Source: Rheinheimera sp. (GTDB lineage: Bacteria; Pseudomonadota; Gammaproteobacteria; Enterobacterales; Alteromonadaceae). Taken from it: DNA of 44,698 bases. Of the stretch, positions 20,707 through 28,527 are shown in pieces. The DNA lies in contig JBFKFH010000001.1 of assembly GCA_041618685.1 (NCBI GenBank), forward strand, positions 1 through 44,698, read 5' to 3'. The position numbers and the translations under genes are program-made. Each line of letters begins with the position of its first letter. The first letter of the stretch is position 1. The notes under the pieces were generated by a model, which was given only the letters and a program-made list of their open reading frames with translations, searched no databases and was not told the DNA's origin.

Positions 20707-20721
20707 GGAATAAATTATTCA
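20707..20721. promoter_or_regulatory. Candidate MurR/RpiR operator (autoregulatory site)
   Basis: GGAAT-aaatt-ATTCA, 70 bp upstream of the regulator ATG; same pattern as the sites at 24227 and 24279. Confidence 0.55.
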
Positions 20722-20790: not shown

Positions 20791-21636
20791 ATGGTGTGTT
20801 TATTGAAAATCCGCGGCATGCTGGAGCAAATGTCAGTTATCGAGCGAAAGCTGGCAGATTTTATTCTGGATAACGCGCATTTGCTACGGGATTATTCATC
20901 ACAGCAGCTGGCGGATGCCGTTGGTACCAGCCAGTCCAGTGTGGTGAAGTTTTGTCAGAAACTGGGCTATAAAGGCTACCCTGATTTAAAGCTGGCTATC
21001 AATGAAGCGGTTATTACTGCATCAACATTGAATCGCGACAATCAGGAAGCAAAACCGGCGGCCAACAATCTGGTAGCGCTGGTTGAGCAACTGCAGTTTA
21101 GCTTGCACAGTCATCTGCGCGGCATTCTGGAAATTAATGATGAAACTGCCCTGCTTGATGCAGCAGACACCTTGCATCAGGCAGATAAAGTGCTGATTGC
21201 CGGTTTTGGCATCTCGGGCATCGTCGCCCATGATATGCAGTTTCGTTTACTGCAGCTTGGCAAACTGGCGTTACAACACAGTGATCCGGCAATAACCTTG
21301 CAGCTGGCCAGCACGCTGAATAAAAACAGCGCTATTTTACTGGTGTCAGAATCAGGTCAGAATACCGATTTGCTAAAACTGGCACGCTACGCCAAACAAC
21401 AGAATATACCGCTTATCAGCCTGACCAGTTACAAAACCAATGCGCTGAGTATGGCGGCCAGCGTAGCGTTGTATGCGCTGAGCGGCGACGAAAATGTCAG
21501 AATTAACCCGATATTAGTGCAGCTGGCACAACAGCACCTGTGCCATATTCTGTATTTATTACTCTGCCAGCAGCAAAATAATGATCATCAACTGGAAGAA
21601 AACAGCAAGCTGCTGGACGTACTGGAACAGCCATGA
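20791..21636 (+). CDS. MurR/RpiR-family transcriptional regulator (HTH_6 + SIS)
   Basis: ERKLADFIL...SQSSVVKFCQKLGYKGYPDLK HTH and an SIS domain (GFGISGIVA, VSESGQN, ISLTS). Start set at ATG 20791 after TAAGGA; the track's GTG 20614 extension is not family-like. Confidence 0.9.
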   Translation: MVCLLKIRGMLEQMSVIERKLADFILDNAHLLRDYSSQQLADAVGTSQSSVVKFCQKLGYKGYPDLKLAINEAVITASTLNRDNQEAKPAANNLVALVEQLQFSLHSHLRGILEINDETALLDAADTLHQADKVLIAGFGISGIVAHDMQFRLLQLGKLALQHSDPAITLQLASTLNKNSAILLVSESGQNTDLLKLARYAKQQNIPLISLTSYKTNALSMAASVALYALSGDENVRINPILVQLAQQHLCHILYLLLCQQQNNDHQLEENSKLLDVLEQP

Positions 21637-21655
21637 TGGCAGCGCAACCTGGCCG

Positions 21656-22750
21656 TCAGGGCAACATTTCCAAGCCATCGATAGCAGTGATCCCCAAACC
21701 CGGCACATCTTCAATGGTAATATCAGCATCATTAAATTTTACGCTGCTCTTTACCGGGTCAAACTGACACAGTGAGGGGCCATCCAGATCAATCTTGGTA
21801 ATAACGTCTGATTTTGCTACCGCGACATGGACTGCTGCTGCCACGCTGATACTGCCTTCTAGCATACAACCGATCATACATTGCATATCGTAGAATGAGC
21901 AGATATCGGCAATTTTTATTGCATTAGCAATGCCACCGGTTTTCATCAGTTTAATATTGATAATATCCGCCGCCCGCATTTTTATCAGGTCAATAACCTC
22001 GCGTGGGCCGAAGCTACTTTCGTCCGCCATTACCGGTGTATGCACACGCTCGGTGATAAACTTCAGTCCTTCAAGATCATAGGCTTTCACCGGCTGCTCT
22101 ACCAGCTCTAGCCGTACTCCGGCGTCTTCCAGTTTGTGCAACGCATACACGGCTTCTTTTGCCGTCCAGCCCTGATTGGCATCCAGCCGAATTAATGCCT
22201 TGCCTTCAACTGCAGCATAAATTGCTTTTACCCGCTCAATATCAACACCAATGTCTTTACCCACTTTTACTTTGAGTGTTTCAAAACCACGGTTAATTGC
22301 GTCCAGAGAATCAGCAACCATTTTATCGATGTAATCGACACTGATGGTAATGTCTGTGGTAATTTTGGGCACACCACCGCCAAGGATTTTGTACAGCGGC
22401 GCCTGGTATAACTGGGCAAATAAATCATACACTGCCATTTCTACTGCGGCCTTTGCACTGTAGTTCTTCATAATGCAGTTTTGTATTAGCCGCACGATGT
22501 GGTTTAAATCACTGATGTCCTGCCCGATCAACTTTGGCTTTATTACCGTACGAATGGCTTCGATGATAGAGCCATGAATATCACCGGTGATAACCGCTGT
22601 GGCAGGGGCTTCGCCATATCCAATATGGCCGCTGTCGGTATGCACCATCACGACAATGTCTTCGATGCTGTTGACTGTGCGCAAGGCCGTTTTAAATGGC
22701 GTTTTCAGCGGTATCCGCAACATTCCCAGTTTTATATCAGTTATTTTCAT
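21656..22750 (-). CDS. L-Ala-D/L-Glu dipeptide epimerase (enolase superfamily, YkfB/YcjG-like)
   Basis: Capping-loop TALR, catalytic KVK, metal ligands DANQG/EQP/ADES, second Lys NIKLMK, and the epimerase-specific DLD motif. Confidence 0.92.
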   Translation of the reverse strand: MKITDIKLGMLRIPLKTPFKTALRTVNSIEDIVVMVHTDSGHIGYGEAPATAVITGDIHGSIIEAIRTVIKPKLIGQDISDLNHIVRLIQNCIMKNYSAKAAVEMAVYDLFAQLYQAPLYKILGGGVPKITTDITISVDYIDKMVADSLDAINRGFETLKVKVGKDIGVDIERVKAIYAAVEGKALIRLDANQGWTAKEAVYALHKLEDAGVRLELVEQPVKAYDLEGLKFITERVHTPVMADESSFGPREVIDLIKMRAADIINIKLMKTGGIANAIKIADICSFYDMQCMIGCMLEGSISVAAAVHVAVAKSDVITKIDLDGPSLCQFDPVKSSVKFNDADITIEDVPGLGITAIDGLEMLP

Positions 22751-22778
22751 AGTCGTCTCAGTTTAAAATCGTCTCGGT

Positions 22779-24155
22779 TTAACGCAGTGATTTAATGGCA
22801 TAGAGCGCATCTAGATACGACTGCTCAGCATTGGCATACAAAGGCAGTAAAGGTGTTACCACAACGCCATTCAGTTTGCCGCGGTACAGCCCGCCATGCT
22901 GTGTCGGGTACATTAAGCTGTTCACATCATGGATCATAAAGGGTTCATCGTTAGCCATACCCAAATACAGTGATACATGGCCGGGAAAATAAAACAGATC
23001 ACCAACCTTAGCCTGCTGTATTGCCGCCATTTTTTCTGCCGGGCTGCTATCTGCAGCAAAGCGGATATTGCTGCCGTATGCCCCTTTACCCTGTTGGCCG
23101 GAGTTACGTGGCATCAGCAGGCCAAAACTGCGGAATACTTCGCCGATAAAACCGGTGCAGTCACGGCCGTTGTAATCATGCCCCCAGCCATAACGTTCGC
23201 CGAGAAACTTAAAAGCCTGGTGCAGAATATTCGCGGCGGTAAAAGGTAAGTAGCCCTGCTGCACGTCGGCACTTAGTGGCAGTAACGCCGCGGTTAATGT
23301 CAAACTGCCATCGGCGTTTCGCACCGGTAACTGCACAATATGGCTGGCGACGGTGTTTTGTCCATATAACATAAAGCCGTGTTCAGCCGGGCTCAGTAGG
23401 GGTAGCCGTACCCCCATATCCAGCTGCAGCTCAGACACTGCCGCCAACTGCGGATTAAATGCTGTGCGTACAGTCGCTCCGGTGATAACAACAAAAGGCT
23501 GTTGTTGGCTATAGGCCAGCACTTGTTGTTTTGTGCCAATCGCAATATCGGCAGCCTGCACCCAGCCGGTATAGTTAAAACTGCGCACCAGCTGCCACTG
23601 TTTATCCGCACTTTGGTGCAATACGGCAACCGCATCAGCCGGAAACAGTGCCGTCTCAGCGAAGCGGTCTAAATCCTGGTTGGCTTCTGCGTTGAATACC
23701 CGGTCCAGGGTTGGAAATGCCCGCAGCGGTGTACGCCTGACAACCAGGCCAAACTGCAGCCGGTTTTGCAACTGCACAGTATTCAGTGCCAGACGGCGCT
23801 GGTAGTCCTGCCAGTGCTGTGCGCTAAGCTCAGTGCCATCTGCATAGAAACGGGCACTGGAAGGCGCAGCGCTGACAGATTGAATAATTTGGCGTAATTC
23901 CTCGGCACTATATGCTGCAGGCAAATCTGACAAGGGTTGCATTTCTGCTTGCAGCGCAAACGTTTGCTGGTTGCGTTCGGCAATTTGCTCTGCTGTTAGC
24001 AGCAATTTATCGCCATCGGCAATTTTCGTCTGCCAAAACTGGCGCTTCATCTGTTCCGGCTGTAATAGCGGCACATCAGAACTAAACTGGTTAGCAGACA
24101 CCGTGGTCAGTGCCAGCAGGCAGTAAGTACACAGTAACCACGTTATATTTTTCAT
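22779..24155 (-). CDS. Exported SH3-domain NlpC/P60 peptidase (putative gamma-D-Glu-meso-DAP endopeptidase/dipeptidyl peptidase)
   Basis: Signal peptide, SH3-like segment (LHQSADKQWQLVRSFNYTGWV), and a C-terminal NlpC/P60 domain with YGWG...DCTGF (Cys), PGHV (His) and MIHD (third residue). Confidence 0.88.
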   Translation of the reverse strand: MKNITWLLCTYCLLALTTVSANQFSSDVPLLQPEQMKRQFWQTKIADGDKLLLTAEQIAERNQQTFALQAEMQPLSDLPAAYSAEELRQIIQSVSAAPSSARFYADGTELSAQHWQDYQRRLALNTVQLQNRLQFGLVVRRTPLRAFPTLDRVFNAEANQDLDRFAETALFPADAVAVLHQSADKQWQLVRSFNYTGWVQAADIAIGTKQQVLAYSQQQPFVVITGATVRTAFNPQLAAVSELQLDMGVRLPLLSPAEHGFMLYGQNTVASHIVQLPVRNADGSLTLTAALLPLSADVQQGYLPFTAANILHQAFKFLGERYGWGHDYNGRDCTGFIGEVFRSFGLLMPRNSGQQGKGAYGSNIRFAADSSPAEKMAAIQQAKVGDLFYFPGHVSLYLGMANDEPFMIHDVNSLMYPTQHGGLYRGKLNGVVVTPLLPLYANAEQSYLDALYAIKSLR

Positions 24156-24222
24156 GTCTGTTCCTATGTAACTCTTTATTTTTTATAAAATAAAAACCTT
24201 TCAACCAGTGCTTAACCTAGCG

Positions 24223-24293
24223 CAAAGGAATGAAATATTCCAATTTTTTACAAAATTGAGCATAAATTATTTTCCAAAGGAAAGAAATATTGC
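24223..24293. promoter_or_regulatory. Paired candidate operators in the divergent NlpC-P60/TBDR promoter region
   Basis: CAAAGGAATGAAATATTCC (24223-24241) and CAAAGGAAAGAAATATTGC (24275-24293) are 17/19 identical and 52 bp apart; each carries GGAAW-N5-ATTSC. Confidence 0.6.
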
Positions 24294-24299
24294 TATGTT
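24271..24299 (+). promoter_or_regulatory. Putative sigma-70 promoter of the TonB-dependent receptor
   Basis: TTTCCA-N17-TATGTT with an extended -10 TG (TGcTATGTT). Confidence 0.45.
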
Positions 24300-24409
24300 A
24301 ATTTTGTGCAGAAAATAAACGCTATGCATCGGAAACAAAACGGGCAAGCAGACCCGAGCAACGGATAGTCAGATAAAAACAAAATAACGCAACTCCAGGA
24401 GAGATAGTG

Positions 24410-27253
24410 ATGAAGTTGAATAAGCTGATTCAGGCCCTAACCCTTGCCGGCCTGAGCACACATGCATTTGCCCAGGACACCGCCCAGCAGAGCGACATTG
24501 CTGCCGAGGACGCTAAAGTCGAGCGGATCCGGGTTACCGGGTCAAGCATTAAGCGTACCGCCCTTGAGGGCGATTTACCGATCACCGTTTTCAGCCGTGC
24601 CGACATCGACGCAGCCGGCATTACTTCCGCAGAACAATTACTACTGCAAATGAATATCGCTGGTAATTCGTCTGATAACCTGGCCAGTAATGGCGGTATA
24701 GTGTCAGAAGAACAGCGCGGCAATAACGGCGTCTCTGGCGCTAACCTGCGCGGTCAGGGTGCAGATGCAACGCTGGTGCTGCTAAATGGCCGTCGCGTGG
24801 CAACACATGGTCTTAAAGGCCGGGCGGTAGATTTAAACTCTATTCCATTTGCGGCGCTGGAGCGGGTTGAAGTGCTGCGTGACGGTGCCTCAGCCGTATA
24901 TGGTACTGACGCCATCGGCGGCGTAATTAACTTTATTACCAAGAAAGATTACACCGGTGCTGAAGCATCGGCGTTTGTCGACCATACCGAAGCGGGTGGC
25001 GGAAATATCTATCGCACAAACCTGTTGTTCGGCACAGGTGACATTAATAAAGATGGCTGGAACGTGTTTGGTACGCTGTCATACAAGAAAAATGAAGTGC
25101 TGGCGGGTAATGACCGTGACTTCTCGACCACCTTTCAGCCAGCGCGTGGCTTATCGCCTGACACCCGCGGTACCCCTTTCGCTACCGTATTTAACCGCGG
25201 CGCGAGTCAGTCAAACTTAATTGGTACCGGCCTGATAGACCCGCTTGACGGGCAGTCGGTTACCGCAATAAATATCCTTGATTTGCCTGGCGGCGGTGGC
25301 TGTGAAAGCGGCGGCGACATGATGGGGCCGTACGACCATCAACTGTGGAGTTCAGAATCATCACGTTATGCCTGTGCCTGGGATTACCCGGCGGCCGCGC
25401 GTATTCAGCAACCCCAGGAAAGCATCGACTTTATCGGCCGCGCCAGTTTTAAACTGGCTGAAGAGCATATGGCTACACTGGAGTTCGTTGCATCTGAGGT
25501 TGATGTCAGCAAAGCCTTTGAACCCAACCAGATTTCTCCCGGTTCAACCTTTGGCCCCGACGCCTGGTATCCCAGCACTGGCGAATCTTATGATGCCGTT
25601 TACAATGCGCTGGCTAACTATTTTGGTGCCGATCAGCTGAACTATGGCGAACGTATTGCCTACCGCTGGCGTTGTATGGCTTGTGGCCCGCGCGAAATTG
25701 ACACGACCACCAAAGCCTATCGTTTTCTGGCGGCTTTTGAGGGCGTAATAGCAAACTGGGATTACAATGTTGGTGTGTCACGCGCATCCAGTGAATCAGA
25801 ATCTACCCTTGGCACTGGCTACCACTACACGGCAGAGTTACAGCAAGTTCTGGGTAGCGGCCTGATTAACCCTTTCCTGATGCCTGGCCAAAGCCAGTCA
25901 GCGGCAGGAATGGCCGCGCTCAATAGTGCCTCTGCGTATGGCGTTAAGCTATATGGCGGCGAGTCGATTATGACGCAGATTGATGCGACATTCTCCGGCG
26001 AGCTGGGGTTTGAATTGCCTGGTGGCAACATTATGATGGCCGCCGGTGTTGATTTGCGCCGTGAAGAGTTTAAGTTCAACGGTGATGAGCGGGCAGAGAT
26101 GCGCCCGGTGTTTAACGCCCCTTTTGATAATGCCAACGTACTGGACAAAGTCAGCCGCGACATTAAAGCCGTATTTGTTGAAGTGTATCTGCCGGTGTTA
26201 GATAACCTGGACGTAACACTGGCCAGCCGCTATGACAAATATGACGGCTTTGGCAGCACCACTAACCCGAAAATCTCTTTCAGCTACCGTCCAATTGAAG
26301 AACTGATGTTTCGCGGTGCTTATAGCACAGGCTTTAAAGTGCCATCGTTCAACCAGTTGTTTAATGGTGTAACCGAGTCACAATATACCGGCCTTGACCT
26401 GGCTGATCCGGCGACATGCCCGGGTGGGGTGGCGGATGAAAACGTTGCCGGCTGTGAACGTATTCAACCGGTAGAAATTTTTGGTGGTAAAGAAGATTTG
26501 TCACCTGAAGAATCCGAACAGAAGAGCTTTGGCTTTGTCGTGGTTCCTGTCGACTATTTCAACATCAGTGTCGACTGGTGGGAAATTGAACGTACTGACA
26601 CGATTCGTTCCGCACCACGTGATGTATTAATTGAAAACTACGATCTGTTTGCTGCCAACTGGATCCGCAATGCTCAGGGCACTGTGGTTGCCATTGACCG
26701 GCGCTATATTAACTCGGGTGGTACCTTAACCCGTGGTATCGAGGTTGATGCCAATCTGACCGGCGAACTGGCTGGCGGAACCTGGAAAGTAAACCTGAAC
26801 GGCAGCTATATCGACAGCTTTAAAACTAAAGGCATCGACAGCTTACCGTACAGTGAAGACCTGGTTGGCGAATATGTCCGTTACTACAACCTGCCCATCC
26901 GCTGGAAGCACACGTTGAATTTCAACTATGCCCATGGCGACTGGAGTCATAGTCTGACGCAACTATACCGCGACGGCTATAACGATGAGTTACCGGTAAG
27001 CGTACGCAATGGCAGCTATGTCCCATCGCAGTGGAACCCGAAAGTTGACGAGTACATTACCTATAACTATAGCGTGACGTACAAAGGCATTGACGATCTG
27101 AGCCTGACCTTTGGTATTAAGAACCTGTTTGATGAAGATCCGCCATTTACGGCCCACCAGAATGACTTTGCCGCTGGTGCTGGCTGGGAACCGCGTATTG
27201 CTGACCCACGTGGTCGCGCCTATACGTTGTTAGTTGAATATAAGTTTATGTAA
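24410..27253 (+). CDS. TonB-dependent receptor
   Basis: Signal peptide ending AFA, TonB-box-like ERIRVTGS, plug motifs NLRGQG..TLVLLNGRR and ERVEVLRDGASAVYGTDAIGGVINFITK, and C-terminal NLFD...GRAYTLLVEYKFM. Start is ATG 24410 or GTG 24407 after AGGAGAG. Confidence 0.96.
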   Translation: MKLNKLIQALTLAGLSTHAFAQDTAQQSDIAAEDAKVERIRVTGSSIKRTALEGDLPITVFSRADIDAAGITSAEQLLLQMNIAGNSSDNLASNGGIVSEEQRGNNGVSGANLRGQGADATLVLLNGRRVATHGLKGRAVDLNSIPFAALERVEVLRDGASAVYGTDAIGGVINFITKKDYTGAEASAFVDHTEAGGGNIYRTNLLFGTGDINKDGWNVFGTLSYKKNEVLAGNDRDFSTTFQPARGLSPDTRGTPFATVFNRGASQSNLIGTGLIDPLDGQSVTAINILDLPGGGGCESGGDMMGPYDHQLWSSESSRYACAWDYPAAARIQQPQESIDFIGRASFKLAEEHMATLEFVASEVDVSKAFEPNQISPGSTFGPDAWYPSTGESYDAVYNALANYFGADQLNYGERIAYRWRCMACGPREIDTTTKAYRFLAAFEGVIANWDYNVGVSRASSESESTLGTGYHYTAELQQVLGSGLINPFLMPGQSQSAAGMAALNSASAYGVKLYGGESIMTQIDATFSGELGFELPGGNIMMAAGVDLRREEFKFNGDERAEMRPVFNAPFDNANVLDKVSRDIKAVFVEVYLPVLDNLDVTLASRYDKYDGFGSTTNPKISFSYRPIEELMFRGAYSTGFKVPSFNQLFNGVTESQYTGLDLADPATCPGGVADENVAGCERIQPVEIFGGKEDLSPEESEQKSFGFVVVPVDYFNISVDWWEIERTDTIRSAPRDVLIENYDLFAANWIRNAQGTVVAIDRRYINSGGTLTRGIEVDANLTGELAGGTWKVNLNGSYIDSFKTKGIDSLPYSEDLVGEYVRYYNLPIRWKHTLNFNYAHGDWSHSLTQLYRDGYNDELPVSVRNGSYVPSQWNPKVDEYITYNYSVTYKGIDDLSLTFGIKNLFDEDPPFTAHQNDFAAGAGWEPRIADPRGRAYTLLVEYKFM

Positions 27254-27337
27254 CCCACTTTAGCCACCGGCTGTCCCGCCGGTGGTTATTGTCCCGTCAA
27301 GGATGACAGCAACTCCCACCTGATCCTGGTGATTTTT

Positions 27338-27360
27338 GGCCCGCTAATGCGGGCTTTTTT
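27338..27360 (+). terminator. Intrinsic terminator after the TBDR
   Basis: GCCCGC-taat-GCGGGC followed by T6. Confidence 0.85.
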
Positions 27361-27491
27361 ATTATCTGCGCCATGCTATTGCCCGGTACCAGCGTTAACA
27401 TCAACCTTGTGCTGGCGAAAAACAATTGCCGGTGCTTTTAGGCTAAAAATGTACTATCGTGAGCTGCCGTATTGCTATTAGCGTGCCCTTT

Positions 27492-28115
27492 ATGACTAGA
27501 ACCTGTCTGTTACTGACGCTGGGCCTGTGTTTTTCTTCGCTGGCTGCCACATTAGAAGTGACCGTAACGAATACCCAGCAGCAGCCGCTGCCCTACACCG
27601 TTGTCGAATTAGTACACCCGGAATATCTGGCGGCCCCGCCGGCTGAGGCAGCAAAGGTCGTCCAGCAACAGCTGAATTTTCAACCTTTCGTCAGCGTGGT
27701 ACAACAAGGAACACGGGTAGAGTTTCCCAACCTGGATAAAACCCGCCATCATGTCTATTCCTTTTCAAAAGCCAAAACCTTTGAACTGCGCTTATATGCC
27801 GGCAAGCCTGAAGCGCCGGTAATGTTTGATCAGGCAGGTGTTGTCACCCTTGGCTGTAACATTCATGACAACATGCTGGCGTATATCTACGTTAGCGCCA
27901 GCCGTTATGTTGCTCTGACCGATGCCGACGGCAAGGCAAGCTTTTCTGAGCTGCCAGCGACAACCTATCAATTACAATTGTGGAGCCCATGGCAAACACA
28001 ACCCTTGCCTGCAGCGCAAGGCAGCATAAATGCCGGGCAGAAAAACATCACGATAGAACTTGATATTGCGCCACAGGCATTACCTGCGACACCGAAAAGA
28101 GGCTTTGGTGACTAG
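27492..28115 (+). CDS. Periplasmic cupredoxin-like protein (methylamine-utilization MauL-like) with C-terminal transthyretin-like domain
   Basis: Signal peptide, FQPFV..V..GTRVEFPNLD..RHHVYSFS, and GCNIHDNM (Cys-x2-His-x2-Met, type-1-copper-like). ATG 27492 preferred to GTG 27459. Confidence 0.8.
   Translation: MTRTCLLLTLGLCFSSLAATLEVTVTNTQQQPLPYTVVELVHPEYLAAPPAEAAKVVQQQLNFQPFVSVVQQGTRVEFPNLDKTRHHVYSFSKAKTFELRLYAGKPEAPVMFDQAGVVTLGCNIHDNMLAYIYVSASRYVALTDADGKASFSELPATTYQLQLWSPWQTQPLPAAQGSINAGQKNITIELDIAPQALPATPKRGFGD

Positions 28116-28145: not shown

Positions 28146-28527
<382 letters not shown>

Follow-up and report, generated by a model that had tools for sequence, protein, structure and literature searches.

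A four-gene locus of a Rheinheimera sp., a bacterium of water, which encodes an RpiR-family regulator, an Ala-Glu epimerase, an exported NlpC/P60 peptidase, and a TonB-dependent receptor (TBDR), probably serves to import peptidoglycan (PG) peptides through the receptor, cut them at the gamma-D-Glu-mDAP bond, epimerize the released dipeptide, and use it as food. This reading is drawn from sequence comparison and genomic context. It is very likely that the cargo of the receptor is PG-derived at all. The module is real and conserved, with PG peptides as its likely cargo. The original prediction, a module for feeding on foreign cell walls, holds as to the PG linkage of the receptor, and needs changing as to its substrate, its argument against self-recycling, and its compartment.

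Organization of the Locus

The window (the whole stretch of 44,698 nucleotides analyzed here) is contig C1 of a Rheinheimera sp. genome of 3.18 Mb in 349 contigs, and the closest named homologs of the locus proteins are found in Rheinheimera, Alishewanella, and Arsukibacterium. All four predicted genes were recovered at their predicted positions (table 1). The regulator and epimerase genes are convergent; the epimerase and peptidase genes lie on the same strand, with the peptidase gene 28 bp upstream. The peptidase gene and the divergent gene for the ~947-aa receptor have a 254-bp intergenic region in common, in agreement with the promoter region that had been proposed for both. The locus is flanked on one side by mraZ, with which the dcw cluster begins, and on the other by rnpB/rsmI. 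Of the homolog loci examined outside the genus, none was found to adjoin mraZ. As had been claimed, Pfam detected no inner-membrane permease and no amidase among the genes of the window locus, and Amidase_2 queries found no exported amidase in the window's genome.

Table 1. Features of the locus and its borders in the window
Feature	Position	Strand	Basis or remark
Candidate operator palindrome GGAATAAATTATTCA, 5' of regulator	20707-20721		Core kept in most of 32 aligned genus promoters
RpiR-family regulator, HTH_6 + SIS, 281 aa	20791-21636	+	Pfam
L-Ala-D/L-Glu epimerase, YkfB-like, 364 aa, cytoplasmic	21656-22750	-	Best solved relative 1jpm
SH3b-NlpC/P60 peptidase, 458 aa, SH3_6 + NLPC_P60	22779-24155	-	Pfam
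Divergent promoter core	24227-24315		Near-invariant, 33 genus loci
Operator-like sites in divergent promoter core	24227-24241, 24259-24273		Motif scoring
TonB-dependent receptor, type A, 947 aa, plug + barrel	24410-27253	+	Pfam
Terminator-like hairpin (intrinsic type) 3' of receptor	27338-27365	+	
rnpB (RNase P RNA gene)	28147-28526	-	Fixed downstream border of variable receptor slot

Between the receptor gene and rnpB lies a gene for an exported protein (27459-28115, + strand) which has no Pfam family above the cut-off. Its homolog comes and goes in the receptor slot, and in two loci (L244 and L247) it is paired with an unannotated ORF of ~415 aa which is absent in the window.

Linkage of the Receptor to Peptidoglycan Genes

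The receptor of the window (hereafter type A) has a TBDR fold with plug and beta-barrel, and a C-terminal aromatic residue. It reaches no NCBIfam receptor cut-off, and its structural model has a mean pLDDT of 72.6. Among 7997 scored proteins, 4857 matched at E 1e-100 or better, not all of which are necessarily of the same subfamily. A literature search found no characterized member of this family, in line with the earlier statement that no muropeptide TBDR of this type had been characterized, although subscription papers or supplements might contain data on the fitness or expression of a homolog.

Type A was found in 18 of 36 same-genus genomes. The peptidase and epimerase genes lie upstream of it in all 18 and the regulator gene beside it in 17; in the remaining one the contig ends early. 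Homologs were sought in 5 of the 64 GTDB parts, and the best 80 matches, corresponding to 79 loci, were kept; 74 neighbor proteins were scanned with Pfam and then used as probes for PG genes. Among the 63 non-Rheinheimera loci from these best 80 (identity of at least 38.5%), 52 carry a PG-catabolic gene (S13, 36; S66, 26; M15, 19; AmpG-like, 15; Amidase_2, 11; MurQ, 9). A peptide-side gene is present in 50 of these 63 loci and a sugar-side gene in 25, and four Xanthomonadales loci from the same best 80 carry the same peptidase. A stricter list from the best 80, with a limit of 8.5 kb, gave 8/14 (≥55%), 46/51, 2/3, and 0/11 (≤36.5%).

Control windows around unrelated TBDRs contained PG genes in one case out of 75, which proved to be an anmK locus. 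These controls comprise 35 windows into which all 42 TBDR matches of genome G031 were merged (one positive), 20 of 41 matches in G061 (none), and 20 of 103 in G062 (none). Because the probe families had been taken from the counted loci, some of which are related and therefore not independent, a hold-out of 300 genomes was drawn evenly from the phylum; the receptor family was detected in at least five of them (two candidates were scored per genome), and four of these five, a small sample, have PG neighbors. A lack of linkage between the receptor and PG genes had been set beforehand as the result that would overturn the prediction, and what was found was linkage in 52/63 homolog loci against 1/75 controls, and in 4/5 of the hold-out. 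Taken together, these genomic contexts, which recur in many Proteobacteria, strongly suggest a link of the receptor to PG peptides.

The other 11 of the 63 loci (from the best 80) have no PG gene, and several of them are short contigs. Close homologs without PG genes include L040 (66%), L041 (69%), L042 (67%), L046 (61%), and L045 (57%), the first four of which also lack the operator motif described below. Four of the five genomes tested from PG-less loci encode the peptidase and epimerase elsewhere. One type A homolog (L055:9932-12835, 48%) lies without a PG gene amid what looks by eye like a photosynthesis cluster. The window's genome also encodes another receptor (G000:C52:8674-11580), which is 54-55% identical to TBDRs whose neighbors are AnmK (L204) or MurQ together with the peptidase (L151, L154, and L158); in this genome it has neither PG neighbors nor the motif.

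Exchange of Receptors behind One Promoter

The peptidase is present in 34 of the 36 genus genomes. An unrelated Oar-like receptor of ~1010 aa (type B) occupies the same slot in 15 of the 16 type A-less genomes, whereas the contig of the sixteenth stops at the peptidase gene. In these 15 sister genomes type B sits behind the same promoter as type A does elsewhere, and the core of this promoter is near-invariant whichever receptor follows. In a quick tree built from the flanking genes (32 rows, restricted to loci with all four genes; the flanking genes may themselves recombine), the A/B label changes seven times, five of which are forced by well-supported branches. Both receptor families are linked to PG genes in other lineages. 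Moreover, among 15 non-Rheinheimera peptidase clusters from metagenome loci that have 6 kb or more of flank on each side, 14 have a TBDR, belonging to at least four families. The peptidase-epimerase pair seems, from these arrangements, to need a receptor and not one particular receptor family.

One locus (L117:5905-9752) contains a whole type B receptor gene and, after it, a 3' remnant of type A with 209 codons, which looks like a replacement in progress. An unannotated ORF encoding a lipoprotein-like protein of ~470 aa (L240:9150-10553 and L234:9048-10496), which has no Pfam match, is often found beside type B.

The Peptidase and Its Tyrosine Gate

The exported SH3-NlpC/P60 peptidase with an intact Cys-His-His triad was confirmed: the triad is C333-H393-H409, and the hydrophobic N-terminus was judged by eye and hydropathy to be a Sec signal. 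Its structural model (pLDDT 93) is closest to DvLysin (3m1u, TM 0.75) and PnpA (6sqx, TM 0.73), and gave a TM of 0.46 to YkfC. Both sequence and model indicate the four-domain type of DvLysin and PnpA, with a c-clip, two SH3b domains, and an NlpC/P60 domain carrying the triad.

According to the available part of PMC4600125, recycling enzymes of this superfamily are defined by a Tyr in SH3b1 and an Asp, and lysins by Ala/Asn at these sites. When NYTGW in the peptidase is aligned with 3h41 (GYPGW) and 3m1u (FAAGW), Tyr195 falls at the gate position, which corresponds to Tyr118 of BcYkfC and Ala211 of DvLysin. The Tyr of the YkfC subfamily is therefore present, and the small gate residue with which the DvLysin/PnpA lysins admit sugar-bearing substrates is absent; PnpA has a Thr at this position. 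On the other hand, the site of BcYkfC Asp256 is occupied by Asn351 (PRNSG vs. PRDSG). We considered filing the peptidase as YkfC proper and rejected this assignment because of Asn351 and the nearer fold of DvLysin/PnpA. The peptidase remains a triad enzyme with a predicted gamma-D-Glu-mDAP specificity, and belongs with DvLysin/PnpA and not with YkfC proper. Tyr195, Asn351, and the triad are each found in 120 of 121 homolog matches, which include near-duplicate loci; the remaining match does not cover the site.

In the accessible data of the same source, the DvLysin mutant A211Y lost its PG activity, its activity on TCT fell from 5500 to 90, and that on free tetrapeptide was retained (4900 vs. 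6100); for sugar-bearing muropeptides the decrease was about 60- to 90-fold (PMC4600125, Table 2). Since Tyr195 lies at the position of this mutation, the peptidase may be regarded as a naturally occurring counterpart of the A211Y mutant. The prediction is that it favors free stem peptides and releases L-Ala-D-Glu, the substrate of the epimerase. Whole muropeptides had been proposed as the cargo to be cut, and here the Tyr gate predicts free stem peptides instead. From the pairing with the epimerase and the receptor, a role in peptide catabolism is likewise predicted, and not that of a lysin.

The Epimerase

The best solved relative of the epimerase is B. subtilis YkfB (1jpm, 329 bits). No NCBIfam cut-off was reached (best 251 of 500). 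The protein retains R24, K160, K162, D190, E218, D243, K267, D321, and D323, which include the KxK motif, three metal ligands, second Lys, and DxD motif of Ala-Glu epimerases of the enolase superfamily, as well as Arg24, which binds the Glu carboxylate (residue roles as given in the available text of 10.1101/2022.05.01.490185). Nothing signal-like was found at its N-terminus. These features bear out the proposed cytoplasmic Ala-Glu epimerase with its catalytic motifs, and the epimerization step assigned to it is well supported by sequence similarity.

The epimerase is 72-78% identical to Xanthomonadales-type copies (L043, L044, and L183) versus 51-66% to most marine-type copies (L124-L145), and the receptor is likewise closer to Xanthomonadales-type than to most marine-type loci. 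A horizontal exchange of epimerase and receptor genes with Xanthomonadales-type loci is possible.

Regulator, Operator Motif, and Candidate Regulon

The regulator had been described as RpiR/MurR. Membership of the RpiR family holds (HTH_6 and SIS domains), whereas the protein is not a MurR of the E. coli type: it scores 92 of the 408 bits of the NCBIfam MurR cut-off (PRK15482), and murQ of the window's genome lies on another contig, not beside it. The name MurR was rejected for these two reasons. A longer reading of the gene from a GTG start (20614) was also rejected, because the ATG at 20791 is where the HTH starts and the extension would take in the operator.

A palindrome, GAATAAATTATTC, recurs in the divergent promoter, the core of which hardly varies among 33 genus loci, and upstream of the regulator gene. 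The site in front of the regulator has the best score of the genome and was part of the training set. Of 1935 ORFs in the window's genome, 23 have a motif match of at least 11 bits in their upstream region. Matches that were not part of the training set precede the genes for a GH3 enzyme, anmK/TBDR2, M14/NhaC-like/DdpX, and an Asp/Glu racemase, and those at GH3, anmK, and NhaC are found again in some of the five relatives compared. The ampG, ampD, ldcA, and DUF819 promoters of this genome lack such a match. Strong matches genome-wide number 7 versus 1-6 in shuffles, an excess so small that the case for the motif rests on its position and conservation. Three Xanthomonadales loci, all GC-rich, also have the motif at their peptidase promoter, and the RpiR proteins encoded in two of them have an HTH nearly identical to that of the window regulator. 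A sigma-70 scan yielded 10 sites (8.8 expected), and the divergent region contained none of them. We predict that the palindrome is an operator bound by an RpiR regulator which represses the locus. Either of the RpiR paralogs in this genome could be the binder; an apparent third RpiR on C129 proved to be the same gene as the RpiR on C213.

Elsewhere in the window's genome, a probable sugar-side scavenging set was observed, several members of which have the palindrome (L289 on G000:C213, L290 on C142, L291 on C314, and L296 on C343). It contains an RpiR paralog, a second TBDR, and AnmK; a BadF kinase, a MurQ-like protein, and NamZ; an exported GH3; and an M14 peptidase, an NhaC-like transporter, and a D-Ala-D-Ala dipeptidase. 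The anmK-TBDR2 locus was considered as an ong cluster and rejected: its Pfam content includes AnmK, and the available description of ong lists other enzymes. Among 80 metagenome loci, homologs of the NhaC-like, GH3, NamZ, and DUF819 genes were found beside the peptidase in 8, 9, 18, and 19, respectively, versus 0, 0, 1, and 0 among 75 controls.

Proposed Pathway and Alternative Explanations

Judging from the neighbor genes, the receptor would take up stem peptides or small muropeptides. The peptidase, in view of its fold, triad, and Tyr gate, would split free L-Ala-gamma-D-Glu-mDAP(-D-Ala) in the periplasm, and the dipeptide might cross the inner membrane through a permease encoded in trans, for which NhaC-like (C142) and DUF819 (C24) proteins are candidates. 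The epimerase would then convert L-Ala-D-Glu to L-Ala-L-Glu, which PepD (C40) would hydrolyze to L-Ala and L-Glu, and the RpiR protein may repress the locus at the palindrome. We infer both the periplasmic site of cutting and the foreign origin of the cargo; they are left as proposals because the genome has gspD (type II secretin, above the cut-off) and PnpA is secreted by the type II secretion system (T2SS; available part of PMC7860986).

The same chemistry could serve a receptor whose main task is to retrieve PG peptides that leak from the cell itself through the outer membrane. The argument that self-recycling would not need an outer-membrane receptor was too strong, since NixC of Xanthomonas has been proposed for the cell's own PG products (available text of PMC4173781) and offers a precedent for self-recapture. 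In the genus the locus adjoins the dcw cluster, a position confined to the genus in our data. The genome encodes mpl, ampG, ampD, and ldcA, and with Mpl, AmpG, and AmpD present self-derived fragments would also be available. However, the proposed route would destroy the tripeptide on which reuse by Mpl depends, and no motif was found at the promoters of the recycling genes ampG, ampD, and ldcA; both points favor feeding over repair and make self-recapture unlikely.

It is improbable that the peptidase is secreted by the T2SS and attacks walls or debris outside the cell, with the receptor importing the products, in the way that PnpA cleaves Vibrio PG (PMC7860986, available part). The fold closest to DvLysin and PnpA and the presence of gspD would fit such a role; Tyr195, however, sits where the A211Y exchange abolished the PG activity of DvLysin (PMC4600125, as above), and PnpA has Thr at the gate.

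We also consider it quite unlikely that the receptor imports other peptides (oligopeptides or non-PG peptides with D-amino acids) and is only loosely tied to PG. Solitary close homologs lie beside gcvP (L040, L041, and L046), and one of these has M1 and M2 peptidases as further neighbors; the neighborhoods also include S9 peptidases, serine hydrolases, and Opp-like genes; and TonB-dependent peptide removal has been reported in Brevundimonas (10.64898/2026.10.27.762230). The commonest neighbors (S13, S66, M15, Amidase_2, and MurQ) are nevertheless PG-specific in their bond chemistry. That the receptor is instead an iron, B12, or otherwise unrelated receptor which landed in a recombination hotspot is very improbable: the database label "iron complex outermembrane receptor", the best Foldseek matches (siderophore and B12 receptors), and the variability of the slot point that way, but the Foldseek matches are all generic TBDRs, identity to the listed solved chains is at most 16%, no cobalamin riboswitch was found at the receptor locus, as bears on the earlier counter-reading of a response to B12, and both swapped families are PG-linked elsewhere. 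A Fur-box scan gave 10/19 matches at the receptor, but no promoter of the comparison set exceeded 13/19, and the scan speaks neither for nor against an iron receptor.

Comparison with Known Systems

Tannerella forsythia is an auxotroph that salvages PG and lives on wall fragments of other bacteria. Another Gram-negative auxotroph with this way of life is Fidelibacter multiformis IA91, for which the main text of the report names no outer-membrane transporter and has 0 matches for TonB (PMC11652737). In the available part of a paper on recycling in Caulobacter, TBDRs are mentioned only for GlcNAc (PMC13046382).

Adjacent genes for an NlpC/P60 gamma-D-Glu-mDAP peptidase and an Ala-Glu epimerase are also known as YkfB-YkfC in B. 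subtilis and B. cereus and as BT1313-BT1314 in Bacteroides (PMC2954226 and PMC4600125, available parts). The B. cereus pair is similar in its exported peptidase, cytoplasmic epimerase (as proposed), and Tyr gate. In contrast to these pairs, the window peptidase has the longer DvLysin architecture with Asn for Asp256, and in the window a TBDR and an RpiR regulator accompany the pair; the available texts describe neither of them there. With DvLysin and PnpA the peptidase has in common the four-domain fold, a Cys-His-His triad, and Asn at the YkfC Asp site (available part of PMC7860986); it differs from DvLysin in its natural Tyr at Ala211 and its pairing with an epimerase and a receptor.

In the NixC/GlcNAc system of Xanthomonas campestris, a carbohydrate utilization (CUT) system, a TonB-dependent transporter was likewise proposed, by genetic epistasis, for PG degradation products (PMC4173781, available text). 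By its description, NixC is GlcNAc-induced and sugar-centered, with a self-derived substrate. The ong cluster of Pseudoalteromonas likewise combines a TBDR, a MurR/RpiR repressor, and a periplasmic hydrolase for the use of a scavenged polymer fragment, as shown by knockouts, and differs in its substrate, oxidized chitin, and its other enzymes (PMC9537276, available part).

As in loci of the CUT/PUL type, a TBDR, degradative enzymes, and a regulator stand together in the window locus, which by contrast has no inner-membrane transporter and neither a carbohydrate substrate nor a SusD partner. In other lineages inner-membrane transporters sit in the locus.

Implications for a Probable Use of Cell Walls as Food

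Bacterial cell walls represent a large stock of organic carbon and nitrogen in soil and water, and this stock is turned over slowly. For the entry of wall fragments through the outer membrane of Gram-negative heterotrophs, NixC is the sole precedent that we found in the available texts, and it is an indirect one. In culturable bacteria, the present locus puts forward a receptor, a candidate operator and regulon, and a peptidase whose specificity prediction concerns one residue. Its contributions are a Tyr-gated lysin fold, a candidate regulon, and unrelated receptors that have repeatedly replaced one another behind a single promoter. The layout would be that of a TBDR utilization locus with a peptide in place of a carbohydrate as substrate, in which the enzyme pair would work like YkfC-YkfB. 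As a broader and more tentative proposal, which we hold to be quite possible though short of probable, several unrelated TBDR families may be dedicated, interchangeable PG-peptide importers that define a widespread proteobacterial regulon for feeding on the walls of other bacteria, the peptide equivalent of carbohydrate utilization loci, in which a naturally gated enzyme of the DvLysin type would cut the stem peptides. If the PG-peptide reading of the present locus is true, a large receptor family that is now labeled as iron receptors would have to be re-annotated.
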